Shown: positions 1,764-64,000, counted from the stretch's first letter. The stretch is 64,000 nt of DNA from Candidatus Hermodarchaeota archaeon (GCA_048885525.1 JBHLLP010000006.1:1-64000), one strand, 5' to 3'. Translations and numbers: made by a program. Notes: generated by a model from the sequence alone, not told the origin.

Positions 1764-2069
1764 TTGAAATTACGTTTAATTTTAAAAACAACTACAAAGA
1801 AAAAAAAAGATGTAAGTTTGAAGTTCAATATTGCTCCAAGTAAACATATTGGGTTTATTAATTTTATAAACTTAGCTCTAAGTCAAGAATTACCAATAGA
1901 ATTATCTTTCGAAAAAATATCAAAAACAGGTGACCGAGAAGAAAGTAAAATATTTGGACAATTTAAACTTCAAGGTAAAGTAGATTCACAACTATACGAG
2001 TTAGAAGAGGAAATTCAGAATGAAGAACGAAAAAAAAGGAAACTTCAACAAAAAAGAAAACACCATTAA
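1764..2069 (+). CDS. hypothetical protein
   Basis: 101-aa ORF filling an intergenic gap; basic C-terminus; no recognised motif. Confidence 0.65.
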   Translation: MKLRLILKTTTKKKKDVSLKFNIAPSKHIGFINFINLALSQELPIELSFEKISKTGDREESKIFGQFKLQGKVDSQLYELEEEIQNEERKKRKLQQKRKHH

Positions 2070-2166
2070 AATTTTCCTTTTTTAAGTTACTCTTATAAAA
2101 GTAACATAACATTTACGACAAGTTTAGTGATTAAAAAAATCAGGGATTTAAATTGAACTTTCTTTT

Positions 2167-2916
2167 TTAATTAAAAGAAATAAATCCAAGTTTAATGAGA
2201 TTTTTACATACATTATAAACTTGATTTTGATTTAAATTTAAATACTGAGCAATTTGATTAATTGATTTTTTTCCATTTATTTGCTCGTAAACCTTACAAG
2301 AAGAATCTCCTGTTAAGTAGTATTTAGGATTAATTTTTTTAGAGGTTGTGAAATTGGGAATATAACCATAGAATTCGGGAGTCTCTTCTACATATTCTAC
2401 CTCTTTTTTATACTCTAACGGTTTTATATCATCAACTACAAAACTATTGAAAAATTCAAATATTTTATTGTTTGTTTCATCTTGATTTTTTCTATTTTCT
2501 TCTTCAAGAAATCTTTTAACAACATTTTCAAATGGTTTAAAATAATCTAGCTTTCCATTCCAGTTTGAAATTTGATCAATACTGAACTCATTCAAAAAAC
2601 TATTGGAAATTTTATGTAGAGTTTGTTGAACTTCTGTTAATTCTGATTTACTGTCATATGTAGCAAGATAGATTAAATCTGGTATATTTGAATCTTTTAA
2701 GAACGATACATTTAAATTATTATTTGATAATTTCAACTCAGAAATGGTTCCCATTTCATCAAATGAATCTGAAAAAGAATTCAATGCTGAAAAAAATCCA
2801 GATATCATAATGAGATCATCTTCTTGAGAAAGAAGATTTTTAATATTTGAATTTGAAAAATTCTTTGAGAATAAAGGTAATCCATCTTTAATTATTATAA
2901 CGTCGCAAATCATCAA
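2167..2916 (-). CDS. longin-like domain plus C-terminal winged helix (NPRL2-like architecture)
   Basis: N-terminal IIKDGLPLFSK...MISGFFSALNSFS...NWNGKLDYFKPFE pattern typical of Asgard longin domains; C-terminal INGKKSINQIA...VCKNLIKLGFISF winged helix. Confidence 0.75.
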   Translation of the reverse strand: MMICDVIIIKDGLPLFSKNFSNSNIKNLLSQEDDLIMISGFFSALNSFSDSFDEMGTISELKLSNNNLNVSFLKDSNIPDLIYLATYDSKSELTEVQQTLHKISNSFLNEFSIDQISNWNGKLDYFKPFENVVKRFLEEENRKNQDETNNKIFEFFNSFVVDDIKPLEYKKEVEYVEETPEFYGYIPNFTTSKKINPKYYLTGDSSCKVYEQINGKKSINQIAQYLNLNQNQVYNVCKNLIKLGFISFN

Positions 2917-3051
2917 TCTCAGAAATTAATCTCTCATATATTTAAAAATGTTTAAAAGTCATTTAATGATTTATAAGTATCTATTTAATTGAAAAAAAAA
3001 AGAATTATAATACATCTGTGATATCAGTGTAATATAACTAATCAATATATT

Positions 3052-4158
3052 ATGATTCACATACGAGCCCCCGGACGGATTACTCTATTTGGCGAACACC
3101 AAGATTACTTGCTCTATCCTACAATTTCCATGGCAATATCGAAATACATATATTTAGAAGCAAAAAAGATATCTAGACCATATCTTTCAATAGAACTTTT
3201 AGATTTAAATGAAAGTTATGAAATCAAATTAAATAATAAAGAATTGGAATATTTATCATATAGAGATTATCTCAGGAGTGCATATAATCAATGTATACGA
3301 AAAGGTTTTAGATTTCAAAGTGGGTATAATATTAAAATTACTGGAGACATCCCTATTAATGCAGGAGCTGCAAGTTCCTCAGCACTAGTTATAGCTTGGT
3401 TATTTTTTCTAAATTTAATCAGCATGGATCGTAAAAGAATAAATAGATTTCAATTATCATTAATGGGTTATGATACAGAAGTAAAAGAATTTAATGAAGC
3501 CGGCGGAATGATGGATCATTTTACTTCTGTTTATGGTGGACTAATATATTTAGAACAAAAAAAAAATCGACCTACAGTAATTAATAAAAATATAAAATTT
3601 GATGGTTTTGTTCTGGGTAATTCCTTAGAAAAAAAAGAAACTGTGGAAGATCTATTTAGAGTTAAAGACATTACAAAAAAGGCATTTATGGCAATTAAAA
3701 GAGTTATGCCAAAATTTAACCGATACATCTCTTCATTAGAAGAAATAAAGGAATATTTACCTAATCTTAAAAAAGAATATCAGAAAAAAATAATTGGAAA
3801 TATCATTAATCGTGATATAACTATTGAGGCAAGAAAATTGATATTTAATGGCTTTTTTAATGAAGAAATTAAAGATAATAGGTTTAGAAACAATTTCTAT
3901 ATGAGACTAGGAACTTTATTGAATATGCATCATTATCAATTAAGAGAGAATATTGAAGTATCAACAGAAAAAATTGATAAAATGATATTAAATTGCGTAG
4001 AAACAGGTGCGTTAGGAGCAAAAATTAATGGTTCTGGCTTTGGAGGTACTATGTTTGCGTTTTTTCCTGATAATGAAGATCGACTTGTTAGGGTTATCGA
4101 AAAAATAGGTGGAGAAGCATTTAAAATAGAAACAAGTAGTGGTGTGGAGATCTATTGA
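3052..4158 (+). CDS. GHMP-family sugar kinase (galactokinase-like)
   Basis: APGRITLFGEHQDY, PINAGAASSSA, GMMDH and GAKINGSGFGG motifs. Confidence 0.9.
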   Translation: MIHIRAPGRITLFGEHQDYLLYPTISMAISKYIYLEAKKISRPYLSIELLDLNESYEIKLNNKELEYLSYRDYLRSAYNQCIRKGFRFQSGYNIKITGDIPINAGAASSSALVIAWLFFLNLISMDRKRINRFQLSLMGYDTEVKEFNEAGGMMDHFTSVYGGLIYLEQKKNRPTVINKNIKFDGFVLGNSLEKKETVEDLFRVKDITKKAFMAIKRVMPKFNRYISSLEEIKEYLPNLKKEYQKKIIGNIINRDITIEARKLIFNGFFNEEIKDNRFRNNFYMRLGTLLNMHHYQLRENIEVSTEKIDKMILNCVETGALGAKINGSGFGGTMFAFFPDNEDRLVRVIEKIGGEAFKIETSSGVEIY

Positions 4159-4910
4159 AAGCTGTTATATTATGTGCTGGTTTAGGAAAACGTTTAAGAC
4201 CTTATACAGAAGCAATCCAGAAATCAATGATATATATTCATGGTAAGCCATTACTAGAACATATCATTAATGGATTAATCTATACAGGTTTTAATAATCT
4301 AATAATTGTTGTGGGTTATCGAAAAGAGCAAATTATAGAATATTTTAATGATGGAAATAAGTGGGGGATAAAAATTGAATATATTGAACAAAAAACCCTT
4401 GACGGTACAGGTGGAGCAGTATTACTATGTGAGGATTTAATTAAAGATTCTCATTTTTTTTTAACTTGGGGTGATATCTTAGTACCATATTCTATATATA
4501 AAGAAATTTCTGAAATATTTAAAAAAAAGAACCAAGATTTTTTATTAGTTGCAAATTATACGAGAGATCCATATAAAGGTGGAGCTATTTACTGTAAAAA
4601 TGATTATTTACTAGATATTGTAGAAAAACCACCGAAAGGTAAATCTAAATCCAACCTTAATAATTGTGGAATTTTCATATTCTCATCAGAAATTTTTGAA
4701 GTCCTAAAAACTCTTAAACCTTCTAAACGAGGTGAAATTGAATTAACAGACGCAATAAGGAATGGAATTAATTTAAGGAAATGGAACATTAGAGTTATTA
4801 AAATGAAAAAGAATCAATTTAGAGGAGATTTTGGAAATAAATCAACTTATGAGAAATTATCTAAAGACTCAAATTGGCTGAGTGAATTAATTAATAATTC
4901 TAAGGATTAA
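4155..4910 (+). CDS. sugar-phosphate nucleotidyltransferase
   Basis: LCAGLGKRLRP, EQ..LDGTGGAV, EKP and RGEIELTDAI motifs. Its start overlaps the kinase stop (TTGA), implying translational coupling. Confidence 0.9.
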   Translation: MKAVILCAGLGKRLRPYTEAIQKSMIYIHGKPLLEHIINGLIYTGFNNLIIVVGYRKEQIIEYFNDGNKWGIKIEYIEQKTLDGTGGAVLLCEDLIKDSHFFLTWGDILVPYSIYKEISEIFKKKNQDFLLVANYTRDPYKGGAIYCKNDYLLDIVEKPPKGKSKSNLNNCGIFIFSSEIFEVLKTLKPSKRGEIELTDAIRNGINLRKWNIRVIKMKKNQFRGDFGNKSTYEKLSKDSNWLSELINNSKD

Positions 4911-12506: not shown

Positions 12507-13064
12507 TTATGAAATTTTTTTATAAAAAAAAGTAAACAATTGTTGTTTATCCATCTTATGGGTTAAAATGTATTCATTCTTCAGAATGGAGCTAAAATTT
12601 TCGAGTTTATACTTGTGAGATATAATGATTGCTCCTTTTTTTGCAGTTCTAAAGACGTGTTTAAGATATTTATGCATTGAAGGGAAGGAATATATGTAAA
12701 TATAATTATATTCTTCTAAATTATGCGTAAAAAAGTCTCCTTGTTTAACTTTTATTTTTTTATTTAGTCCTTTTTCATAATTCCCTTCCTGTTTCAATAA
12801 TTTTATGCGAATCTTAGTTTCTTTTACTAGATTGTGATCAATTTCAATTCCATAAGCTTTAATACAGTAGTTTATTGCAGTGAAAATAACGATACTTCCA
12901 TTTCCAGCTCCTAAATCAATTAATTTTTGATTAGAGGCACGTTTTAAACCAAATTTAAGTTCAAGTGTATTAAATATATCTCCCAATAACTTATAATCTG
13001 TTTCTGAAAAGGGTAGATCTAATTGTGAATGAAACTCGCTAAAATTCTTTAATTTCTCTTTCAA
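12507..13064 (-). CDS. class I SAM-dependent methyltransferase (aKMT/FAM173-like)
   Basis: LIDLGAGNG, YGIEID, GDFF, YIYIY, KGAIIISH. Confidence 0.85.
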   Translation of the reverse strand: MKEKLKNFSEFHSQLDLPFSETDYKLLGDIFNTLELKFGLKRASNQKLIDLGAGNGSIVIFTAINYCIKAYGIEIDHNLVKETKIRIKLLKQEGNYEKGLNKKIKVKQGDFFTHNLEEYNYIYIYSFPSMHKYLKHVFRTAKKGAIIISHKYKLENFSSILKNEYILTHKMDKQQLFTFFYKKIS

Positions 13065-13291
13065 TCTAATCTCAATATCTTTTTAGGTACAATTTTGGAA
13101 GATCTATAATATAATAAATACCGTTCTTTAATAAATGCCTTCTAAAATGGTTATAGAAATATATTATTATTTATTCCGAGGTTTCCTAATATTAAAAGAT
13201 GTAAAACCTTAATATCTTCAAGATTTAACTTTAATACGATGTAACTTTTTACTATTTTAAAATTTCTTTTTGATACAATAATAATCTTATT

Positions 13292-14290
13292 ATGACAAAA
13301 ATATTAATTACTGGTGGTACGGGTTTTATAGGAGTTCCATTGGCAAAGAAGCTACATGATTTAGGACATAAGTTAAAGTTATTAATCAGAGAGAGTAGTG
13401 ATATATCTCCTTTTGAAGGAATAAATAATATTGAATATATCACTGGAGATATTCGAGATATTAATTGTTTATATAAAGCAGCAGAAAATGTTGATATTAT
13501 TTATCACCTTGCGGCTTATACAGGAATATGGGCAAAAAAAAACTCAATTTATTATGACGTTAATGTTAAAGGAACTGAAAACATCGCCAATATTGCTCTG
13601 GAAAAAAACCTAAAATTATTTTATATTAGTTCTTTTACTGCATTAGGTCCTACTCCTGCAGAGCCTGTTGATGAAACTCATGAAAAAGATCATTTTTTTT
13701 TGGAATATGAAAAATCAAAATTTCAAGCAAAAAAATTAGTTAAAGGATTTATACCTAAAGGATTGAAAGTGGTATTACTTTATCCAGGAATTGTATATGG
13801 TCCAGGAGATTTTAACATATTTGGAAGAATGCTTTGTGATGTTATGAGGGGAAAGATCCTTCCTTTAGGTGTATGTCCTGGAAAGGGAGAATCTATAGCT
13901 TGTTTTTCATATATTTATGATTTAACAGATATCTTAGTAAGTTTAATCAATAGAGAAGATGTTTTTGGAGATGATTTTATTCTTGGTGGAGAGAATATCA
14001 AATTTAAAAAATATTTAGATTTAATTGCCGAAATTGGAAGAGGTGAAAAAGCTAAAAAACTTCCTTTCTGGGTTACCATGATTTATGCATGGCTACTAGA
14101 AGTAAAAGCATTTTTTAATAAAAAAATCCCTTATCTAACACGATCTACACTTAAAACCATTAAATATCATAGATCTTTTTCTTCAAAAAAAGCTATTGAA
14201 AAATTAGGTTATAAAATTACACCATTAAGAGAAGGTCTAGAACAAACCATAGAATGGTATAAGGATTATATTGAAAAAAGAAAAAAATGA
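13292..14290 (+). CDS. extended SDR, NAD-dependent (HpnA/farnesol dehydrogenase-like)
   Basis: TGGTGFIG, HLAA, SSFTALG, catalytic YEKSK, LLYPGIVYGPG. Confidence 0.9.
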   Translation: MTKILITGGTGFIGVPLAKKLHDLGHKLKLLIRESSDISPFEGINNIEYITGDIRDINCLYKAAENVDIIYHLAAYTGIWAKKNSIYYDVNVKGTENIANIALEKNLKLFYISSFTALGPTPAEPVDETHEKDHFFLEYEKSKFQAKKLVKGFIPKGLKVVLLYPGIVYGPGDFNIFGRMLCDVMRGKILPLGVCPGKGESIACFSYIYDLTDILVSLINREDVFGDDFILGGENIKFKKYLDLIAEIGRGEKAKKLPFWVTMIYAWLLEVKAFFNKKIPYLTRSTLKTIKYHRSFSSKKAIEKLGYKITPLREGLEQTIEWYKDYIEKRKK

Positions 14291-14308
14291 GGAAGGTAAT
14301 TTAATTTT

Positions 14309-14779
14309 ATGTTAGAAGAAGGAATGAAAAGTAAAATTATCGATAAAAAAGCTTACAACACAAAGATTGCCAAAAAATATACCTCATTTCTATCAAAATA
14401 TCCTGAAATTTTTTCAGATCTAGTAAGTGGATCAGATTTTGATTTTGCCCTTTATAATTCTCTTGAGGCATATGACAAGAGATCTCCTGTAGATATATTC
14501 CATGTGTATCGAAATGGAAATGGGATAGAAATAACACCTGGGAATGCTGTTGATTCAGATTTAGAATTAGCACTCTCATTAGATGCAGTAGAAAAATTAA
14601 TCCAAACAAATTCGAAGTTAAAATATGCACAGCTTTTGGGATCTTTTTACAACAATCCAGATGAGGAAAAAGGATGGATTGATTTTGTATTGCATAAAAG
14701 GACCCAAACCTTAATTGATATGGGTTATGGCAAGTTTGCTCAGACTGCGGGTATCCTTAAAGATGACGACGAGATATAA
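14309..14779 (+). CDS. hypothetical protein, possible SCP2-like lipid-binding fold
   Basis: FHVYRNGNGIEITPGNAVDSDLELALSLDAVEKLI resembles the SCP2 beta-hairpin/D-x-x-L/helix pattern; paralog of 16334..16744. Confidence 0.65.
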   Translation: MLEEGMKSKIIDKKAYNTKIAKKYTSFLSKYPEIFSDLVSGSDFDFALYNSLEAYDKRSPVDIFHVYRNGNGIEITPGNAVDSDLELALSLDAVEKLIQTNSKLKYAQLLGSFYNNPDEEKGWIDFVLHKRTQTLIDMGYGKFAQTAGILKDDDEI

Positions 14780-14830
14780 GCTTTGAACTTGTTATTTTGA
14801 AACTGAAAATAAAAAAGAAGAATAGTTATT

Positions 14831-16324
14831 ATGGCAAAATCACAAGAATTAGAAATAATAAACAAGTATACTGGTGAAATTATAGGAACTGTTCCTGCAG
14901 ACACACCAGAAACACTTAGAGAAAAAATAAAAAAAATACATAGGAATCAACATCTACTAAAAGAAATGGATTTTTTTGAACGTTCCCAACTTCTTTCTAA
15001 ATTTGCTACTAAATTACGATTTAATAAACCTAAATTAAAGGATTTGGTTGTAGCAGAGGGTGGATTACCAATCAAGTATTCTGAATGGGAATTAAATATT
15101 GTAATGAATGGTTTCAAATTTTGTGATTGGTATTACCAGTTCTTAGAAGAAAAGCCATTAACAAGTATAGAGGGAGAACAACTTGTTAGAATTAGGTATA
15201 TTCCGCATGGTTTAGCAGCGTGCATCTCACCTCGTAATACTCCTTTAAGTCTTCCTCTCTATCAATTGGGTGCTAACTACCTTGTTGGGAATGGAGCAAT
15301 AGTAAAACCATCCACCGCGTGTCCATTAACAATGCTTGAAGCTTATTCAATGATGGAAGAGATGGAATTACCTGCTCTTGAAGCTTTAGATTTAGTTATC
15401 GCTCCTGGAGAATGGGCTGTAGATGAATTCATTAAATCACCTTTAATTAAAACTTTAATGACGATTACAGCATCTCATACAGCAAAAGATATCTTAGCTC
15501 GTTATGGTAGATTCTTGAAAAAAACAGTTGATAGATCAATGGGAGTTCCCATGTATACTCAACCTTTTAAGAATTTTTTTTTCGAATGTGCTGGTAATGA
15601 TGCGGGTATAGTAATGGATGATGTGAATTTAGAAAATGTAGCAAAATGGAATGTAATGGCTAGTTATACAAATTCTGGACAACAATGCTTTTCGATGAAA
15701 AGAATTATTGTTCATAGAGACATATATGATGAATATAAAGAATGCCTTATAAGAGAAATTCAAAAATTAAAGTATGGAGATCCAACTGATCCAGCTGTAG
15801 ATATCGGACCTTTAGGAAGCAGAAGAATTTTGATGATGATGGAGGTAATGGTAGAGGATGCAAAAAAATATAATGCAAAGATTTTTACGGGAGGTGAAAA
15901 GGTCGATACAGGGGAAGACTATGGACTATTCTACAAACCAACTCTAGTTGAAATCAAACCAGAATTATGTGAAGATTTATCAAAAGCTCCCTTTCTATGG
16001 AAGGAGGAGGCTTTTGGGCCTGTTCGTTCTATCACTAAGGCTAATAACATGGATGATGCAATAAGATTAGCAAATGCGAGTAATTATGGTATGAGGGCAG
16101 TTGTTTACACATCAAATTTGAAAAATATAGAGATCTTTAAGAATGAATTAGAAGCTGCGAATATCTATATAAATGCTAGACCTATGCTTGTTGATATTAC
16201 CGTTTCTCTGGGCGGAATTAAAGATTCTGCTTATCCCGCAGGTTGTAAATATTATCCTCAGGAATTAGTTTATGGAAAATATATTTATGACGGGACCCCT
16301 ATAAATATAGAGAAAATTAAGTAG
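14831..16324 (+). CDS. aldehyde dehydrogenase family protein (divergent)
   Basis: VKPS, ECAGND (Glu), NSGQQC (catalytic Cys), EEAFGPV, ANASNYGM, GGIKDS. Confidence 0.92.
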   Translation: MAKSQELEIINKYTGEIIGTVPADTPETLREKIKKIHRNQHLLKEMDFFERSQLLSKFATKLRFNKPKLKDLVVAEGGLPIKYSEWELNIVMNGFKFCDWYYQFLEEKPLTSIEGEQLVRIRYIPHGLAACISPRNTPLSLPLYQLGANYLVGNGAIVKPSTACPLTMLEAYSMMEEMELPALEALDLVIAPGEWAVDEFIKSPLIKTLMTITASHTAKDILARYGRFLKKTVDRSMGVPMYTQPFKNFFFECAGNDAGIVMDDVNLENVAKWNVMASYTNSGQQCFSMKRIIVHRDIYDEYKECLIREIQKLKYGDPTDPAVDIGPLGSRRILMMMEVMVEDAKKYNAKIFTGGEKVDTGEDYGLFYKPTLVEIKPELCEDLSKAPFLWKEEAFGPVRSITKANNMDDAIRLANASNYGMRAVVYTSNLKNIEIFKNELEAANIYINARPMLVDITVSLGGIKDSAYPAGCKYYPQELVYGKYIYDGTPINIEKIK

Positions 16325-16333
16325 TTCCTATTC

Positions 16334-16744
16334 ATGATGGATACTGTAGAATTATATAAAAAATTGAAAGCTTATTTTTCAAAAAATTCAGATTTAATGA
16401 GACATCTTAATTTGCGCGCATGTTGGGAGTATTTCATTGCTGTAAATTCAACTAATGAAGATAATTTCAAACTACACTATTTCTTGTATAAAGAACAAGA
16501 GAAAAAATTAGAAATGACAAGAAACAATCCAAACATTAAGCCGGATTTGATATTATATTTCACCGAAATGGCAATTTTAGAATTAATTAAAGGGAATCCC
16601 AGTGCGGATGAATATTATTCTCGGTATCGTGAAATACTGAATAATCCCAAACCAAAAATTGAAGTGGATAATAAAGTGAATAAACCTCGACTGAAACTAT
16701 GGCAGATGGGATATAAGAAATGGCAATCTGATTTTAAATTTTAA
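16334..16744 (+). CDS. hypothetical protein, possible SCP2-like fold
   Basis: KPDLILYFTEMAILELIKG...NNP...KLWQMGY; paralog of 14309..14779. Confidence 0.65.
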   Translation: MMDTVELYKKLKAYFSKNSDLMRHLNLRACWEYFIAVNSTNEDNFKLHYFLYKEQEKKLEMTRNNPNIKPDLILYFTEMAILELIKGNPSADEYYSRYREILNNPKPKIEVDNKVNKPRLKLWQMGYKKWQSDFKF

Positions 16745-16762
16745 ATCAAGTCTTAAATTAAC

Positions 16763-18178
16763 ATGAATGAAGAAGAAATATATTATATGTCTGCCTGTGA
16801 AATGGCAGAGAAAATTAAAACACAAGAATTAACTTCTCTTGAAATAACAGAAGTTATAATAAAAAGAATAAAAGAGATTAATCCATTAATCAATGCTTAT
16901 TGTACGACAACATTCGAGTTAGCAAGAGAAATGGCAATAGAAGCGGATGAGAGGGTAAAAAAGAATGAAGATATACCCCTTTTAAATGGGGTTCCCACCT
17001 CCATAAAAGATTTAGAACTCATTAAAGGAGTGAGAACTACATTTGGATCAAAAATATTTGAGAATTACTTTCCAAGTGAAGATTCTATTGTTGTAAAGCG
17101 TTTAAAAGAGGCAGGTTGTGTGATCTTAGGTAAAACCAATACACCTGAATTTGGTTTTAAAGGAGTTACTGATAATCTAATTTTTGGTGCTACCCTCAAT
17201 CCCTGGAATCTTGAGAAGACATCTGGAGGATCGAGTGGTGGAGCAGCTGCTTCTGTTGTCTGTGGTATGGGACCTATAGCTCAAGGTTCGGATGGAGGTG
17301 GATCCATTCGGCATCCTGCTTGTTTTTGTGGAGCTTATGGTCTCAAACCTAGTCTTGGAAGGGTTCCTATATATCCAAGAAAACCAAGTCCTATTACAAA
17401 TTTATCTGTTATTGGTCCAATTACAAGGTATGTCTCAGACGCAGCTCTTATGCTTGATGTGATAAAGGGACCATTTGAAGGTGATAGATTTTCTCTACCA
17501 AAAGATTCAGCCAATTACTTTGCTCATATAAATGAAACCCCCAACAAATTAAAAATCGGTTATAGTTTAAATCTAGGTTACGCAAAAATCATTAATAATG
17601 AGATTGAAAAAGCAATTATTAAATCAGTTTATAAATTTGAATCTCTTGGATGGAATGTAGAGGAAGTGAAATTTCAAGGGATTGATCCATCAGTAGCTTT
17701 CAGTACTCATTGGCTAATAAATTTAGGATATAGCCTAGAACCATACTTAGATGAATGGAAAGATAAGATTGACCCTCTTTTAGTCTTTTGGGCTGAAACG
17801 GGATTAAAATCTTCATCACTTCTACCAGATGCTATGAAAATACGTAACGAATTTTATTATAGTATTTTTGAATCATTTAAAAATTATGATATTTTAATAA
17901 CTCCAACAACAACAGTTCCAGCTTTCGAAATAGGAATTGCAGCACCTACAAGTATAGAGGGAGTAGATGTTGGACCTACAGGATGGCAACCGTTTACTTT
18001 TCCTTTCAATTTTACTGGACACCCAGCAGCATCTATTCCCTGTGGATGGGCAAGTAATAATCTTCCTATTGGCATGCAGATTGTAGCCAAAAGATTTGAA
18101 GAATTATTAATTCTTCAAGTTTCAAAGGCTTTTGAGGAATTAGCTCCATGGCAAGACAAAAAACCACTATTCAACTAA
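16763..18178 (+). CDS. amidase signature family enzyme
   Basis: PTSIKD (Lys), GKTNTPEFG, SGGSSGG, GSDGGGSIR, FNFTGHPAASIP. Confidence 0.95.
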   Translation: MNEEEIYYMSACEMAEKIKTQELTSLEITEVIIKRIKEINPLINAYCTTTFELAREMAIEADERVKKNEDIPLLNGVPTSIKDLELIKGVRTTFGSKIFENYFPSEDSIVVKRLKEAGCVILGKTNTPEFGFKGVTDNLIFGATLNPWNLEKTSGGSSGGAAASVVCGMGPIAQGSDGGGSIRHPACFCGAYGLKPSLGRVPIYPRKPSPITNLSVIGPITRYVSDAALMLDVIKGPFEGDRFSLPKDSANYFAHINETPNKLKIGYSLNLGYAKIINNEIEKAIIKSVYKFESLGWNVEEVKFQGIDPSVAFSTHWLINLGYSLEPYLDEWKDKIDPLLVFWAETGLKSSSLLPDAMKIRNEFYYSIFESFKNYDILITPTTTVPAFEIGIAAPTSIEGVDVGPTGWQPFTFPFNFTGHPAASIPCGWASNNLPIGMQIVAKRFEELLILQVSKAFEELAPWQDKKPLFN

Positions 18179-18268
18179 TGTTAATCACAGTCTCATTTTA
18201 AAAAAAATTAAGCAATCATTTTTATTAATCTCCGTTACATCCTATATTATTAAGATAATTATTATAAA

Positions 18269-19696
18269 TTGATAAAAATGAATAAGGAAGATATATGTTT
18301 TTTACCTGCTTTTGAAATGAGAGAGAGAATAATTACCCAAGAAATGACTTCTCAAGAGATTACAGAAGCTATTATTGAGAGAATTGAGAAAATAAATCCT
18401 ATTATAAATGCCTACTGTACTACTACTTTCGATTTAGCTAGAGAAATGGCAAAAAAAGCGGATGAAGCAGTAAAAAAAGGTGAAAAATTGGGTCTATTAC
18501 ATGGAATTCCAACTTCGATAAAAGATTTAATGTTTACAAAAGGAATTAGAACGACATTTGGATCATTGATGTATGAAAATTTTATACCTGAAGAAGATGA
18601 TATTGCAGTAGAAAGGTTAAAAAGTGCTGGTTGTGTAATTTTAGGAAAAACAAATACTCCTGAATTGGGTTATGCTGGATCTACTCATAACCTCGTTTTT
18701 GGAGAGACTAAAAATCCTTGGAAACTAGATAGAACTTCTGGAGGTTCAACTGGTGGAGGAGGTGCTGCCGTAGTATGTCGTTTAGGTCCACTTGCATTAG
18801 GAAATGATGGGGGCGGTTCAATAAGACATCCTGCTTCTTTTTGTGGAGTTTATGGTATAAAGCCTAATCTAGGAAGAGTGCCAATATATCCAAAAATTAG
18901 TTTTCATGGAACGGGGTATGTTTCCTATGGTCCACTTACTAATTATGTTAAAGATGCTGCTTTAATGCTAGATGCCATGAAGGGACCTCATGATGCTGAC
19001 AGATTTAGTTTACCAGCTGAAAATGTTAACTATATAGAACATCTTGATGAGAAACCAACTAACCTAAAAATTGGATATTCATTAGATTTAGGTTTTGCCA
19101 AAGTTATTGATAAAGAAGTGGAGAAAAATGTAATAGATTCAATAGAAAAATTTGAACATTATGGATGGACTGTTGAAAAAATAAAAATTAAAATGCGGAA
19201 ACCTGAGATGTCTTTTTATACCTTTTATTCATCCGATTTTTATTATGACCTTAAACCAAAATTTAAAGAGTGGCGAGATAAATTAGATCCCGAATTAGTA
19301 AGAGTAGCAGAGGCTAGTATTGGATTTTCTGCAAATGAAGTGATGAGAGCTGCAGATCAACGTGAAAAGATTTATAGAGCAATTTATGAAATTTTTAAAA
19401 CTTATGATATCTTAATAACGCCAACAACAGCAATCCCTGCATTTAAATTAGGATTGATGTTCCCACCAAAAATAAATGGAATTAATGTATCACCTACTGG
19501 GTGGCAGCCTTTCAGTTTTCCGTTTAATTTAACAGGACATCCAGCAGCATCTATACCTTGTGGCTGGTCGAGTGAAAATCTACCTATTGGCATGCAGATA
19601 GTTGGAAACAGGTTCAATGAAATGCTTATACTTCAAGTTTCAAAAGCTTTCGAAGAAATTCAACCCTGGCAAGATAAAACACCAAAATTCGATTGA
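18269..19696 (+). CDS. amidase signature family enzyme (tandem paralog)
   Basis: PTSIKD, GKTNTPE, SGGSTGG, GNDGGGSIR. True start is probably the ATG at 18278. Confidence 0.95.
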   Translation: MIKMNKEDICFLPAFEMRERIITQEMTSQEITEAIIERIEKINPIINAYCTTTFDLAREMAKKADEAVKKGEKLGLLHGIPTSIKDLMFTKGIRTTFGSLMYENFIPEEDDIAVERLKSAGCVILGKTNTPELGYAGSTHNLVFGETKNPWKLDRTSGGSTGGGGAAVVCRLGPLALGNDGGGSIRHPASFCGVYGIKPNLGRVPIYPKISFHGTGYVSYGPLTNYVKDAALMLDAMKGPHDADRFSLPAENVNYIEHLDEKPTNLKIGYSLDLGFAKVIDKEVEKNVIDSIEKFEHYGWTVEKIKIKMRKPEMSFYTFYSSDFYYDLKPKFKEWRDKLDPELVRVAEASIGFSANEVMRAADQREKIYRAIYEIFKTYDILITPTTAIPAFKLGLMFPPKINGINVSPTGWQPFSFPFNLTGHPAASIPCGWSSENLPIGMQIVGNRFNEMLILQVSKAFEEIQPWQDKTPKFD

Positions 19697-19729: not shown

Positions 19730-20818
19730 CTAAAAAGATTTCATGTTAGAAGTAGTAATATAAGAGGAATCTCCTATTGTGATGCTTTTCTTGATTAGAT
19801 CTTCTAGAATTGAATAATCTCCCACAATACTCTCCGAAGATATAATTTTTTTTAAATTAGCGCCATCACCTATTACTGATTCAGATAAAATACATTTCTC
19901 TAAAATTACATCATCTCCTATAGATACATTTGGGCCTATAACAGAATCAGAAATTTTTGTATTATTACCAATAAAAACGGGTGGAACTATTTTTGAATCA
20001 ACTATATTACCAGATTGGAATAATTTCTCGTATGTGGGATCTTGTACTTTGGTCTCTGTCAATAACAGACGATTTCCTGCAATTAAAGTCTCAGGTCGAC
20101 CGAAATCTAATATTTCCCCTTTCATTTCGTTTATTTTTAATTTAAAACCTTCCTCAATTAATTTTTGAATGATTGGTGTTATATGATGCTCTTGTCCATT
20201 CTCTAGTGGAATTTTACTTTGTTCGTCTAATAATTCAAATAATCGAGGAGTCATACTCATTCCAAATAAATATGCTCCTGATACAGCATAATTCGACTTA
20301 GGATTTTCTGGTTTTTCGACGATATTTTTAACAGTTCCATTTTCATCTAATTCAATTACGCCGTAAAATTTTGGATTTTCTACTTGTTTAACATTAATTA
20401 CTCCATCACAGATATCTTGATGAAAATTTAATAAGATTTGTGAATAATCTTCGATAGGAAGTCTATCGCTCAAAAATAAGAAACAATCATCATTGTGGGC
20501 AAGTTTTTTAGCTAATAAAACAGCATCTCCAAGACCACTAAAGAATGGAGTATCTGCTTCATATCCTAATGGTTTTTGCTCAATAAAGTGGAGGTTAAAA
20601 TAATCTGAATGATTTTCCTTTAGATATTCAGTTATTTGTCTTTTCTTATATCCAACTATAAAACATATATTAGTTCCTTTAGGAAACGAGTTTTTCAATT
20701 TTATAAGAATATGATCAATTAACCGTTTACCAGCAATCTTCAGAAACGCTTTAGGCTTTGAATATGTAAAAGGTTGTAATCTTCTCCCTACACCAGCGAT
20801 TGGGCAAATAAGCCACAT
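19730..20818 (-). CDS. sugar-1-phosphate nucleotidyltransferase with C-terminal left-handed beta-helix (glucose-1-phosphate thymidylyltransferase long form-like)
   Basis: PIAGVGRRLQPFTYSKPK, GLGDAV, VEKP; hexapeptide repeats at the C-terminus. Confidence 0.9.
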   Translation of the reverse strand: MWLICPIAGVGRRLQPFTYSKPKAFLKIAGKRLIDHILIKLKNSFPKGTNICFIVGYKKRQITEYLKENHSDYFNLHFIEQKPLGYEADTPFFSGLGDAVLLAKKLAHNDDCFLFLSDRLPIEDYSQILLNFHQDICDGVINVKQVENPKFYGVIELDENGTVKNIVEKPENPKSNYAVSGAYLFGMSMTPRLFELLDEQSKIPLENGQEHHITPIIQKLIEEGFKLKINEMKGEILDFGRPETLIAGNRLLLTETKVQDPTYEKLFQSGNIVDSKIVPPVFIGNNTKISDSVIGPNVSIGDDVILEKCILSESVIGDGANLKKIISSESIVGDYSILEDLIKKSITIGDSSYITTSNMKSF

Positions 20819-53106: not shown

Positions 53107-54507
53107 TCACTCTTTCATTTTTAATATTTCTTCTAATGTGGGTTTTTCTTTAATATCTAAAAGTTTAAACTCATCAATCATTTGAATCAAACCATATACT
53201 ACTACACCATGATTGTATTGCTCGTTTGCATCATATAAATTCCGGTAACAAAATGGACATTCAGTTGTTACTATATCTGCACCTATTGCATTTGCTTCAT
53301 CCAACCGTAAGCTTGATGTCCTTAATGAAAAATCAGCATAGCCTGCTCTCACTCCTCCACCGGCTCCACAACAGAAGCTATCGAGTTTTATTCGGTACAT
53401 TTCTTTAAATTTTATACCAACATCTTGTTCCAATTGTCTTAACACAATTCGAGGAACTTCATACCATTCATCAATCGCTTCTCTAATTTTTCGACTATCC
53501 ATCATTAGATTTTTAGATTCTTCTATTATTTTTTGCTCAATTTCTAAAGCCATGTGTCTTCCGAGATGGCATGGATCATGGTATGTAACTACTTTTCCTT
53601 TTAATTCCTTATTAGGCTTAAATTTGATTTTTCCCTCGGTGATTAATCGAGAAACTAATTCAAATGCATGCATGGTTTTAAAAGGAATTTTACCCTCAGA
53701 TGACCATTTAGGATAATCATTTGTAAAAGTCTTGTAACATCCCGCACAACTAAAGAATATTAAATCCAAGTCTTTAAAGGCTTCAATATTTTTATTCATT
53801 AATTCTTGAGCCGTATCGACAGCACCTACTCTAAAGAATGGACTTCCACAACATACTTCATCCTCAACTAATCTGAAATTAATTCCTAACTGTTCAAAAA
53901 TCTTGCAAGTTGCTATAGCAATCTCAATTTGGCGATAACTTGCTGTACAACCTACAAAATAACCAATCTTTGCATCTTTATTATCTATATATTTCTCTAA
54001 ACCAGCATCTTTTGCCCATTTAAAGCGTTCTTCTGCTTTTCCACCATATGGATTGTTTAATTCCTTTGTTAAACGTTCAACTAACTGATGTTTCTCAATC
54101 ATCGGGATTCCCGCCTCTTTACATGCAGCACGGAGAGCTTCTATAATATCAACGGTTCGCACTTTGTTTTCACATTGGGCTGAACATTGACCACATGTAA
54201 TACAAGGCATAATAACATCCCTAACTTCTTCAGAAAACTCTAAATCCCCACTTAAAATAGAACGAGCAATCCAAATCTTACCAGCATTCCAAAAAGCTTC
54301 CCATCCATGTTCTATACCGGCTGGACATGCATCCACCATACCCTCATAAAGTACAGAACCTTGTTTTCCAGTAAATTCTCCAATTCCTTTTTTATCAGGT
54401 TCTCCTGAGTACGCAAATCTACATGCTTTACAATGAATGCATCTATATACATCCTTTTTAAGCTCTTCGAGCCTTTCCATTCCTGTTTTTGACATTTTCT
54501 TTATCAA
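53107..54507 (-). CDS. Fe-S oxidoreductase with CCG domains (HdrD/GlcF-like)
   Basis: CIHCKAC..CP, CITCGQCSAQC, FVGC, CCGSP, CAGC, YHDPCHLGR, CCGAGGG, CPFC. SD GGAGGTTGA suggests the ATG at 54495 as start. Confidence 0.93.
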   Translation of the reverse strand: MIKKMSKTGMERLEELKKDVYRCIHCKACRFAYSGEPDKKGIGEFTGKQGSVLYEGMVDACPAGIEHGWEAFWNAGKIWIARSILSGDLEFSEEVRDVIMPCITCGQCSAQCENKVRTVDIIEALRAACKEAGIPMIEKHQLVERLTKELNNPYGGKAEERFKWAKDAGLEKYIDNKDAKIGYFVGCTASYRQIEIAIATCKIFEQLGINFRLVEDEVCCGSPFFRVGAVDTAQELMNKNIEAFKDLDLIFFSCAGCYKTFTNDYPKWSSEGKIPFKTMHAFELVSRLITEGKIKFKPNKELKGKVVTYHDPCHLGRHMALEIEQKIIEESKNLMMDSRKIREAIDEWYEVPRIVLRQLEQDVGIKFKEMYRIKLDSFCCGAGGGVRAGYADFSLRTSSLRLDEANAIGADIVTTECPFCYRNLYDANEQYNHGVVVYGLIQMIDEFKLLDIKEKPTLEEILKMKE

Positions 54508-54517
54508 CCTCCTTTAT

Positions 54518-56008
54518 TTATGGAAGAGCAAGTCTTCCTGGATGCATTATAAAATTAGGATCTACGAGCTTTTTGAAAGCCCTCAAATATTTCCAGTACA
54601 TTCCAGCCTGATAATATGCTTGAATATGGATGTAGGGATCTGGTCTATAATTAAGCCAACCTTGTTTTAAAGCATATTCAGTAGTTTCACTGTTTAATTG
54701 TTGAACTTTTTCAAAATCACTTTGTTTTGTACTGTCAAAGCATACAATGGGCATACAAATTGCTTGTCTACATCGTTCAATACTTGCAATCCAAATTACG
54801 GGAGGAAATCCATGTTCTTCCATCTTTTTTGTATACATGTCAGCAAAATGTGCGCATTCTGGCCAAGGAGTATACCAGGTAATAAATAAAAAGCCAGCTT
54901 CCCAGAAGCTATAAGGAATAGCTATTTTATTAGGTTTTTTCATTCTACTGGCAATTTGCTTAGGATGAAGTTCCTGCTTTATAATTGCATCTGGATTTTT
55001 AGCTCTTTTCTTAAAATCTTCGGCCATTTTATCAATTCTATTAGTTACATAATCAAGTTCTTCTTGAGTTTGAGCCCACGTTTCCCAATTCATCCACCAT
55101 TGAGAAATACCAATTTCTTTATAGAAATTATAATCATGTGGGATTTTATCCTTTGGCCATCTAGCCATTACAAGAGGATAATTACCTCCTTGAACCATAA
55201 CGGTATGGTGGCTAATTCCAAACTCCTGTTTAGCAACTTCAAGAGTTAAGTTCTGCATATCGTAAGGATTATCCATACCCCATACAACAACTGTCTTAAA
55301 CTTCGGATGGGGGAATATTTTCACAGCAGCTTTAGTAACTACTCCAAAAGCACCTTGTGAACCCATCAGAAAACTCCACATATCAGGGCCTATACCATAT
55401 TTATAAAAGGGTTTTGCAAATGGAAGTGCCCATGAACCAGTTCGTACTACATCTCCATTTGGGAAAACAATTTCCCCACACATAAAATTATCTCCTTGTG
55501 GACCTACTGAAGATGTATATAACGAAAATCCACGATCAATTGCATCCCCCATAACGGTTGCTGCTGGAGGAGCTCCATCAGGAATTGGAGGTGCCCAATC
55601 TGGATGATATTTATGCATATAACTCCAAAGTTGTCCATTTGTGACCCCTGGTTCTATTATACAATAACGGTTTTCTTCGTCTATTTCAAGAATCCTATTC
55701 ATCCTTCCCAAATCGAGAAGAACTCCACCAGGTTTGATTGTAGGGCATGCAAAACCACCTGACAAACCAGCAGACACGGGACTAACAGCAATCTTTTCTG
55801 CAGAACAATATATTAATATTTTTCGAATTTCTTCAACGTATTTTGGTCGGACAACAATATCTGGAATTTGGGATTCTAACCCCATTACAGATTTAGCTAG
55901 ATATGATGCAGTAATGGCTTTATTATTGGTAGCATACTCTTTCCCGACAATTCCGATCATAGCTTCTAAATCTTTTTCATCCGGTAATTTATAGCTCATA
56001 ATCTCCAA
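54518..56008 (-). CDS. FAD-binding oxidoreductase (GlcD/vanillyl-alcohol oxidase family)
   Basis: PDIVVRP, LDLGRMNRILEID, IEPGVT, GSQGAFGVVT, KKLVDPNFIMHPG. Likely start is the ATG at 55999. Confidence 0.92.
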   Translation of the reverse strand: MEIMSYKLPDEKDLEAMIGIVGKEYATNNKAITASYLAKSVMGLESQIPDIVVRPKYVEEIRKILIYCSAEKIAVSPVSAGLSGGFACPTIKPGGVLLDLGRMNRILEIDEENRYCIIEPGVTNGQLWSYMHKYHPDWAPPIPDGAPPAATVMGDAIDRGFSLYTSSVGPQGDNFMCGEIVFPNGDVVRTGSWALPFAKPFYKYGIGPDMWSFLMGSQGAFGVVTKAAVKIFPHPKFKTVVVWGMDNPYDMQNLTLEVAKQEFGISHHTVMVQGGNYPLVMARWPKDKIPHDYNFYKEIGISQWWMNWETWAQTQEELDYVTNRIDKMAEDFKKRAKNPDAIIKQELHPKQIASRMKKPNKIAIPYSFWEAGFLFITWYTPWPECAHFADMYTKKMEEHGFPPVIWIASIERCRQAICMPIVCFDSTKQSDFEKVQQLNSETTEYALKQGWLNYRPDPYIHIQAYYQAGMYWKYLRAFKKLVDPNFIMHPGRLALP

Positions 56009-62914: not shown

Positions 62915-64000
62915 ATGTCAGATTTATATAAGAAATTAGAGAAGATTGTTTCTGATAAATATATTTCTAATGATATTTATGTACGCCACGCCTATTCACG
63001 AAATGTAGACATTGTTTTACAAGGCGTTCCCGATATTGTAATAAGACCAAAAGATGCTCAAGAAATCTCAGAAATTCTTAAGATTGCAAATGAAGAAAAT
63101 ATTCCTGTAATACCACGTGGTGGAGGCGATTGTGAATTTGGTGGAAGTAAGCCAATTAACGATGAGGGCATTGTTTTAGATTTGAAGAGAATGGACAATA
63201 TTATAAATTTAGATCAAGAAAATTTGATAGTTACAGTCGAGGCAGGTATTTCTTGGGGAAAATTGAATGAATATTTATGCCATTATGGACTATATACCGG
63301 ATGTATGGGACCTGGATCAGGAATGACAGCTTCAATTGGAGGTGGTATTTCACATCAATCAGTTGGAGGTGGAGGATGTGCAAAGTATGGTTCATGTACT
63401 AACCAATTAGTTTCTTTAGAAGTGGTTTTACCAACAGGTGAAATAATTCAAACAGGGTCTCAAGCTAATAAATTTTCTAAGTTTCCTTTTAATAGATTTG
63501 GAAATGGACCTGATTTATCAGGACTTTTTTGTGGTGATAATGGTATTTTTGGGATAAAAACAAAAATATCGCTTAAAGTATTTCCTAAACCGGAGTTTGC
63601 TGATTACAAAACTTTTTTACTTCCTCGAAAATCTGCTGAAACTGCTGCTCAAATTATGACGGAGATTCGAAGAAAAGGAATTAATGTATATGATACAATG
63701 TTTATTACTGATGTTGTTATTGAACTTGGGTCAAAGCAAGGATTTTTTCCTTTATGGGAGCATATAAAAAAGAAAAAAGGAATGCTTTTTTATACAATTG
63801 AAGCGAATTCGGAGGTTGAGTTAAAAGAAAATGTCAGAATCTTAGATGAGATTATTTTAAGTAAGAAATCTGAATATCTAGGTCCAGAAATCTCCGATGG
63901 TAATATAGCTAAGTGGCATTATACGGAACAAGGGCATTGGCAATTTTATCATAATTTATGGGGTATGTTTCCTTCCATGCAACCACTCTCAGCGGAATGT
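62915..64000 (+). CDS. FAD-binding oxidoreductase (GlcD-like), truncated by the window end
   Basis: ATG at 62915, frame open to the end; PDIVIRP, PRGGG, LDLKRMDNI, VEAGISW, LEVVLPTGEI, GDNGIFGIKT. Confidence 0.9.
   Translation, partial: MSDLYKKLEKIVSDKYISNDIYVRHAYSRNVDIVLQGVPDIVIRPKDAQEISEILKIANEENIPVIPRGGGDCEFGGSKPINDEGIVLDLKRMDNIINLDQENLIVTVEAGISWGKLNEYLCHYGLYTGCMGPGSGMTASIGGGISHQSVGGGGCAKYGSCTNQLVSLEVVLPTGEIIQTGSQANKFSKFPFNRFGNGPDLSGLFCGDNGIFGIKTKISLKVFPKPEFADYKTFLLPRKSAETAAQIMTEIRRKGINVYDTMFITDVVIELGSKQGFFPLWEHIKKKKGMLFYTIEANSEVELKENVRILDEIILSKKSEYLGPEISDGNIAKWHYTEQGHWQFYHNLWGMFPSMQPLSAEC

Follow-up and report, generated by a model that had tools for sequence, protein, structure and literature searches.

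What do two small proteins of no Pfam family do on either side of an aldehyde dehydrogenase (ALDH) in an archaeal gene cluster, and how did they come to be there? The question is raised by positions 13292-19696 of a stretch of 64,000 nucleotides from Candidatus Hermodarchaeota archaeon (GCA_048885525.1, JBHLLP010000006.1:1-64000; the whole stretch is called the window below). A short-chain dehydrogenase/reductase (SDR) of the extended type, small protein A, the ALDH, small protein B and two amidase-signature enzymes are encoded there one after another. Of all known organisms, Asgard archaea are the nearest kin of eukaryotes; little is understood of how they handle lipids. An original prediction, made from the sequence alone, took all six genes for an undescribed operon of lipid or isoprenoid catabolism, in which A and B would be dedicated carriers or accessory subunits. 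It was found that the conserved part of the cluster, SDR-A-ALDH-B, is the trimmed form of a larger module of Asgard archaea, and that A was formerly the C-terminal domain of an iron-sulfur protein.

A trimmed form of an Asgard module

Fourteen more of the loci examined, which come from at least three genera and from metagenome contigs, show the gene order SDR-A-ALDH-B; hence, the order is more than chance, and a synteny check on the first four genes came out in favour of the original prediction. When 400 genomes from the phylum were scanned with a profile, 133 of them proved to contain A. Outside the window's subclade, the match sits inside frames of 520-590 amino acids, and the majority of the other Asgard families have A as the C-terminal domain of a Fer4/CCG iron-sulfur protein of about 550 residues, which public records call HdrD or (Fe-S)-binding protein. 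On the minus strand of locus L039, for example, the genes for an SDR, a FAD_binding_4/FAD-oxidase_C protein (FADox), a 550-residue Fer4/CCG protein, an ALDH and B follow in this order; the last 155 or so residues of the Fer4/CCG protein are 58% identical to A, and the ALDH and B are 78% and 67% identical to those of the window. FADox and the CCG-A fusion are adjacent in all ten distant loci; eight of these have an ALDH ortholog (37-78% identity) next to the pair or close by, and five have B there, in collinear or divergent arrangements. The families with B are those with A, with the exception of one (f31), and, despite rearrangement, at least nine families have the ALDH, the A domain and B together.

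This uncharacterised module of flavoprotein, Fe-S(CCG)-A protein, ALDH and B (L039, L040, L041, L042, L044-L047, L077 and L078) is the closest system to the cluster. The A domain and B are orthologous in the two, and so is the ALDH, with its odd motifs PRNTP, SHTAK or SHVGK and SGQQCFSMKR and its insert ahead of the catalytic Glu; inside the window's family, the likeness extends to the SDR and to the methyltransferase at the flank. The window thus has what marks the module, namely a linked A domain, an ALDH of the PRNTP/SGQQCFSMKR subfamily and B. It differs in having neither the GlcD-like flavoprotein nor the Fer4/CCG part, in encoding A as a separate gene and in the amidases that have joined downstream.

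The missing partners belong to the class of two-subunit FAD/CCG dehydrogenases, which includes GlcD/GlcF glycolate oxidase, D-lactate dehydrogenase with an HdrD-like partner, LctD and TfrB. The flavoprotein of the parent module matches glcD best (151 bits) and has LDHD (8jdb) and LctD (7qh2) as its nearest structures in the PDB, and the CCG part matches TfrB and LdhH best. Unlike the known enzymes, none of which carries an A domain, the parent proteins score far under the curated cut-offs, and no such pair is left at the window's locus. The flavoprotein has PYWTG at the position of GEHG in mouse D-lactate dehydrogenase; hence, it is not an ordinary 2-hydroxyacid enzyme, and a reading of the parent module as a lactaldehyde-to-lactate-to-pyruvate pathway, which had been considered, is weakened. 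In another family (L071, G129:C28, positions 1922-4845), the flavoprotein is split into 345 and 159 residues and the CCG-A protein into 249 and 212 residues, with the ALDH and B intact; either the redox part has decayed here a second time and independently, or the assembly is at fault.

Three forms of the locus can be distinguished. Form 1, SDR-FADox-CCG.A-ALDH-B, is found in three genera (L039, L077 and L078); form 2, SDR-A-ALDH-B with zero to three amidases, in the window and the 14 other loci; and form 3, SDR-ALDH'-amidase(s) without A and B, in the three g1 genomes examined (L079-L081). All three occupy one site in the window's family, with the same flanks on either side. The free-standing A proteins (14 of 14) form one clade (100/99) nested among the fused forms; a single deletion of about 2.6 kb therefore created form 2. 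The deletion took place in the ancestor of the window's clade and removed the flavoprotein gene together with the Fe-S/CCG part. Orthologs of both are absent at the locus and genome-wide, the best paralogs being 41% (flavoprotein) and 38% (CCG) identical, as against 53-77% and 42-65% for orthologs. "Carrier A" is therefore by origin not a dedicated carrier gene, as had been supposed, but what remains, namely the C-terminal domain, of an Fe-S/CCG subunit that was deleted.

The closest paralogs of the deleted proteins are themselves a pair, encoded on the plus strand at positions 62924-64000 of the window and on to position 65601 of the contig. Another pair of GlcD-like flavoprotein and CCG protein lies on the minus strand at 53197-55954 (CCG matches at 53197-54372, FADox match at 55277-55954), in the most GC-rich segment of the window (0.375 at 54-56 kb).

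Both small proteins are functional genes under purifying selection. In nine form-2 loci, the ratio of nonsynonymous to synonymous substitution (dN/dS) was 0.14 for A and 0.17 for B; the SDR gave 0.19 and the ALDH 0.05, and synonymous sites are near saturation. From the low values for A and B, it was concluded that the freed A domain is a working gene.

Another departure from the original prediction is that sister genomes of the same genus have SDR-ALDH'-amidase without A and B. In this genus, the type of ALDH goes with the presence of A and B: except for a few cases at contig ends, the genomes that carry A, B or both are the 31 whose ALDH is 83-94% identical. Fourteen g1 genomes have only an ALDH of 56-58% identity (ALDH'); B is absent from all of them, and A from all except G180, where it lies at a contig end. 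In total, about 40% of the genus's genomes are without A and B, genomes of 100% completeness included. ALDH' retains every hallmark of the subfamily, and in a midpoint-rooted FastTree tree it falls outside the f5+f7+f1 clade, by which a fast-evolving copy arisen in situ was ruled out. The SDR tree follows neither the forms nor the genera. Taken together, the position of ALDH' and the discordant SDR tree indicate that the site exchanges alleles. A form-2 cluster 53-81% identical to that of the window was also found in a genome assigned to another family (f16), on a contig of 4651 bp (L070, G057:C51), its A falling inside the f1 clade; this could be binning contamination or a recent transfer.

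Organization of the locus

The six open reading frames (Table 1) are co-oriented, with gaps of 18 bp (SDR/A), 51 bp (A/ALDH), 9 bp (ALDH/B), 18 bp (B/amidase 1) and 90 bp (amidase 1/amidase 2), and the gene order, coordinates and gaps given by the original prediction were all reproduced. The SDR motifs that it quoted (SSFTALG, EYEKSK, LLYPGIVYGPG and GEN), and which it likened to those of plant farnesol dehydrogenase and HpnA-type enzymes, are likewise all present in the translation. A Shine-Dalgarno-like motif, GGAAGGT, stands 11 nt 5' of the ATG of A. On either side of the block lies an opposite-strand gene, a divergent one for a DOT1-like methyltransferase at 12507-13064 and a convergent one for an NTP-transferase at 19730-20818; the methyltransferase flank is present in all three forms of the locus. 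For amidase 2, an ATG at 18278 (sequence TTGATAAAAATG), three codons past the called TTG, is the likelier start; the alignment of the two amidases, which are 61% identical, begins at residue 4.

Table 1 The gene cluster of the window and the region upstream of it
Feature	Length	Position	Strand	Remarks
Divergent AT-rich intergenic region between DOT1-like methyltransferase and SDR	227 bp	13065-13291		Sequence read; presumed promoter region of the cluster
Extended SDR	332 aa	13292-14290	+	Pfam Epimerase/3Beta_HSD
Small protein A	156 aa	14309-14779	+	Free-standing; SCP2-fold-like (predicted); no Pfam family
Divergent ALDH	497 aa	14831-16324	+	Pfam Aldedh
Small protein B	136 aa	16334-16744	+	Paralog of A; always free-standing; no Pfam family
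Amidase-signature enzyme 1	471 aa	16763-18178	+	Pfam Amidase
Amidase-signature enzyme 2	475 aa from TTG	18269-19696	+	Pfam Amidase

The small proteins A and B

A and B had been described as orphans, a term that no longer applies: 403 near-length homologs of A and 324 of B were found, mostly 65-90% identical to the copies in the window, and these close homologs are all labelled Asgard, of Lokiarchaeota/Promethearchaeota type, which marks the window's genome as that of a Loki-type Asgard archaeon. NCBI locus tags put the two genes two apart. B is rare, with only 20 clusters among 1.84 billion representatives. The proposed paralogy of A and B was confirmed by hhalign (probability 97.9%, E 6.3e-13, 136 columns). 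It was resolved because the profiles took in fused and distant members; BLASTP gave an E of 0.27, and shallow profiles gave an E of 0.004 at a probability of 8%.

The resemblance of A and B to sterol carrier protein 2 (SCP2), which the original prediction had also claimed, stands for the predicted fold and not for the family. AlphaFold models were obtained with pLDDT values of 76 (A) and 67 (B). In VIA fold searches made with these predicted models and independent of Foldseek, the top 18 rows were all SCP2-fold chains or domains except for the SpnK methyltransferase, at rank 5 for A and rank 8 for B; the best Z was 7.1 for A (root-mean-square deviation 4.2, 102 residues) and 5.9 for B (3.1, 82 residues), and unrelated folds score about 3 in both searches. 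Foldseek agrees weakly, giving by itself no match at E ≤ 0.001. The comparison included human SCP2, the SCP2-L domain of MFE-2, insect SCP-2, AF1534, UbiJ and the C-terminal domains of SdsA1/YjcS and of Eis. Like these, A and B are predicted to have an alpha/beta fold of N-terminal helices, a four- or five-stranded sheet and C-terminal helices, and A resembles the SCP2 domain of MFE-2, SCPx, SdsA1 and UbiJ in being found both free and fused to an enzyme. Unlike them, A and B have a longer, helical C-terminal half that ends in conserved MGYGKF or GYKKW.

At the level of sequence, the SCP2 family Pfam PF02036 is absent from A and B even at E 10, and none of 20 members of the A family matches it at E 1. 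A scan of the genome itself with PF02036 found seven other genes, A and B not among them. Alignment of profiles with the SCP2 alignment by hhalign was weak (for A, an E of 0.004 in 29 columns; for B, an E of 0.15), and the invariant glycines of the C-terminal Gly-x-L-K-x-x-G strand of SCP2 have no counterpart in the family alignments of A or B. Searches of PDB sequences with the two profiles returned nothing usable. Hence, A and B are SCP2-like in predicted fold only and fall outside the SCP2 family.

True SCP2 genes were met with in two further settings. On a metagenome contig (L005, positions 107-1982), a distant homolog of B directly follows a true PF02036 gene and a gene for a family-III CoA-transferase, and is convergent with a pair of FADox and CCG-A genes, beyond which an ALDH lies; neither A nor B gave any match when set against the lone true SCP2 gene of this locus. 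Among the seven true PF02036 genes of the window's own genome, that at C40:17662-17943 adjoins a paralog of the GlcD-like flavoprotein (C40:18277-19671), and that at C15:9255-9485 adjoins another (C15:7662-9062) with a CCG gene (C15:6495-7574). At least two of the seven thus lie beside such paralogs, so that a pairing of SCP2 with flavoprotein recurs in this genome. A complex of ALDH, B and A was also predicted; the real complex was outscored by a control with a substitute for the ALDH, and the prediction was not used as evidence.

The SDR and the ALDH

The SDR matches the Pfam families Epimerase (92 bits) and 3Beta_HSD (80 bits). Its best NCBIfam match is HpnA (TIGR03466), with 184.1 bits under a cut-off of 367.65, followed by SdmB (114) and OleD (82-90); GalE scores only 45 bits, and every curated cut-off is missed. 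The four top curated matches are lipid enzymes, enzymes acting on nucleoside diphosphate (NDP) sugars scoring far lower, and the kinship with lipid-type families foreseen in the original prediction was thus upheld. The nearest solved structure is 3wj7 (E 2e-34). As in extended SDRs of the HpnA, SdmB and OleD type, the glycine motif TGxxGxxG (ITGGTGFIG) and the triad of Ser (in SSFTALG), Tyr and Lys (YxxxK, YEKSK) are present, and the HpnA model aligns over the full length (residues 3-325 of 332). Unlike HpnA, the SDR of the window stands at half the HpnA cut-off, and a hopanoid or sterol context is absent at the locus.

The ALDH matches Pfam Aldedh (PF00171) with 297 bits. Lactaldehyde dehydrogenase (NF040648) is its best NCBIfam match, with 240.5 bits against a cut-off of 650, which places it outside that family; the best match in the PDB is 6j75 (E 3e-46). 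Cys286, Glu252 and Asn136 align with the catalytic positions of 6j75 and 3k2w, the EEAFGP motif is in place, and the catalytic Cys, Glu and Asn are invariant in ten orthologs, which supports the original prediction. The cofactor loop departs from the usual G-x-T-x-x-G, reading TASHTAK in the window's class and GSSHVGK in distant orthologs, and an insert of about 15 residues precedes the catalytic Glu. The motifs are kept in orthologs of 37-88% identity.

The amidases

Both amidases belong to the amidase-signature family (PF01425; 357 bits for amidase 1 and 368 for amidase 2), and both fall short of every NCBIfam cut-off, their best match being PRK06169, at 437 and 414 bits against 506. GGSSGG, GGGSIR and the Lys of SIKDL are visible, in agreement with the Ser-cisSer-Lys pattern. 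The original assignment to the family that contains fatty-acid amide hydrolase (FAAH) is thus correct, but FAAH is not the nearest of the solved relatives: the closest PDB matches of amidase 1 are aryl acylamidase 4yj6 (9e-65), GatA and NylA, with FAAH lower (2e-41). The window amidases share PF01425, the GGSSGG loop and Ser-cisSer-Lys with all four, FAAH being the most distant.

The number of amidase genes varies from zero to three across relatives, and none was found at any locus outside the window's subclade, nor at L076 within it. In some relatives, an open reading frame of 226 residues without a Pfam match lies on the opposite strand between B and the amidase (L002, 10440-11120; L003, 3881-4561) and overlaps the end of B by about 10 bp. 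In the window, where 18 bp separate them from B, the amidases are probably co-transcribed with the genes upstream. They are lineage-specific neighbours outside the conserved core; of the six-gene operon first proposed, the first four genes are a conserved unit, and the six do not make one conserved system.

Proposed function and alternatives

The explanation favoured here, to which we give nearly an even chance, is that SDR-A-ALDH-B was trimmed from the Asgard-wide module and carries out the two-step oxidation of a poorly soluble alcohol, with A and B as substrate holders. The ancestral module comprised the GlcD-like flavoprotein, the Fer4/CCG protein with A at its C-terminus, an ALDH of this subfamily and B, with the SDR in front in the window's family; the deletion left domain A as a gene of its own directly after the SDR. 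In two steps linked to NAD(P), the SDR would then convert the alcohol to the aldehyde, and the ALDH the aldehyde to the acid, with A and B holding the hydrophobic substrate and presenting it to the ALDH; the one to three amidases in the window's genus may act on an amide-bearing form of substrate or product. A and B are taken for accessory proteins of the ALDH because A stayed beside it after the deletion of its host enzyme, and because A and B are kept or lost together. The clues that point to a hydrophobic substrate are the fold predicted for A and B, the SDR's lipid-type relatives, the SCP2 gene beside a distant B homolog and the SCP2/flavoprotein pairs of the genome. A route from lipid alcohol to acid fits the data, as the original prediction had it, but remains unproven, its substrate being putative; no specific substrate, isoprenoid or ether-lipid, is supported.

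Several observations weigh against this explanation. The resemblance to SCP2 comes from models of moderate confidence, with Z values under the secure level of 8, and it is accompanied by neither a Pfam match nor the C-terminal glycine motif, the profile links being weak. The degenerate glycine motif of the cofactor site in the window's clade makes the cofactor of the ALDH itself uncertain. The nearest curated and solved relatives of this enzyme (lactaldehyde dehydrogenase, AldA and succinic semialdehyde dehydrogenase, SSADH) take small polar aldehydes, all of them scoring far under cut-off, and the same ALDH subfamily is present without A and B in sister genomes.

Some of these points are accommodated by a different explanation, in which A and B are protein-protein adaptors. 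A would first have served, with B, to dock the ALDH on the flavoprotein/Fe-S dehydrogenase, letting an aldehyde pass between the active sites; the two would now stabilise or regulate the ALDH oligomer, whose substrate might be a small, polar one, for instance a hydroxy-aldehyde like lactaldehyde or glycolaldehyde. The fusion of A to an Fe-S subunit beside the ALDH suits such a tether, the SCP2 fold serves structurally in the Eis-type acetyltransferases that are among the fold matches of A and B, the sequence hallmarks of SCP2 are missing from both proteins, and the best curated matches of the ALDH are the small-aldehyde enzymes just named. Those matches, however, are all remote (240 bits against 650), the parent flavoprotein has PYWTG in place of the GEHG of D-lactate dehydrogenase, the nearest families of the SDR are lipid enzymes, and the pairing of true SCP2 genes with other GlcD-like flavoproteins in these genomes suggests a lipid theme. 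On balance, adaptors are considered rather unlikely.

The allelic variation at the site could also mean that it is a variable, recombining accessory locus, where the SDR, the ALDH and the amidases are independent enzymes of detoxification or scavenging in local synteny and A and B are being lost. Three allelic forms at one site within one family, the absence of A and B from some two-fifths of the genus, complete genomes among them, the varying number of amidases and the replacement of alleles suggested by the SDR tree and by ALDH' would all follow. Yet such a reading is improbable in view of the low dN/dS of A and B (0.14-0.17, at saturated synonymous sites), which does not indicate decay, of the short gaps of 9-51 bp and the Shine-Dalgarno-like motif ahead of A, and of the persistence of ALDH, A domain and B together in at least nine families. 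The opposite extreme, in which all six genes degrade an N-acylated amino alcohol or a similar lipid amide, is quite improbable, as the amidases are missing outside the window's subclade and in L076, an opposite-strand gene separates them from B in several relatives, and, among solved structures, those nearest to them come from aryl acylamidase, GatA and NylA, not from FAAH. The SDR and the ALDH would there oxidise the terminal alcohol to a carboxylate, A and B would hold the acyl chain and the amidases would split the amide. The tight spacing of B and amidase 1 in the window speaks for this, as do the packing of form 3 (4-12 bp between SDR and ALDH', about 50 bp between ALDH' and the first amidase in L080) and the intact signature of a superfamily that includes FAAH. 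In mammals, N-acylethanolamines are converted to N-acylglycines by alcohol and aldehyde dehydrogenases, a further point in its favour.

Significance

In literature searches on Asgard ALDH and sterol carriers, Asgard SCP2, Lokiarchaeota GlcD/HdrD and Gox2253, no description of the module or of the A/B family was found. New in this work are the trimmed form and its origin in a single event, the selection acting on A once it had been freed, and the third form without carriers. The family of A and B has hundreds of members, is unannotated and goes with a divergent ALDH in nine or more Asgard families. The full, trimmed and carrier-less forms amount to a ready-made deletion series, and the three together indicate that it is the ALDH, and not the Fe-S enzyme, for which the A domain is needed.

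It is possible, though doubtful, that A and B represent an undescribed, Asgard-restricted branch of lipid-binding proteins with the SCP2 fold, which work as a pair and hand isoprenoid- or acyl-type aldehydes to a dedicated ALDH. If this is true, a carrier domain would have outlived the redox enzyme to which it was fused, which would prove the ALDH to be its partner. The enzyme would then be the first of the ALDHs to have lipid carriers as dedicated subunits, and would offer a handle on the turnover of membrane lipids in the archaeal relatives of eukaryotes.

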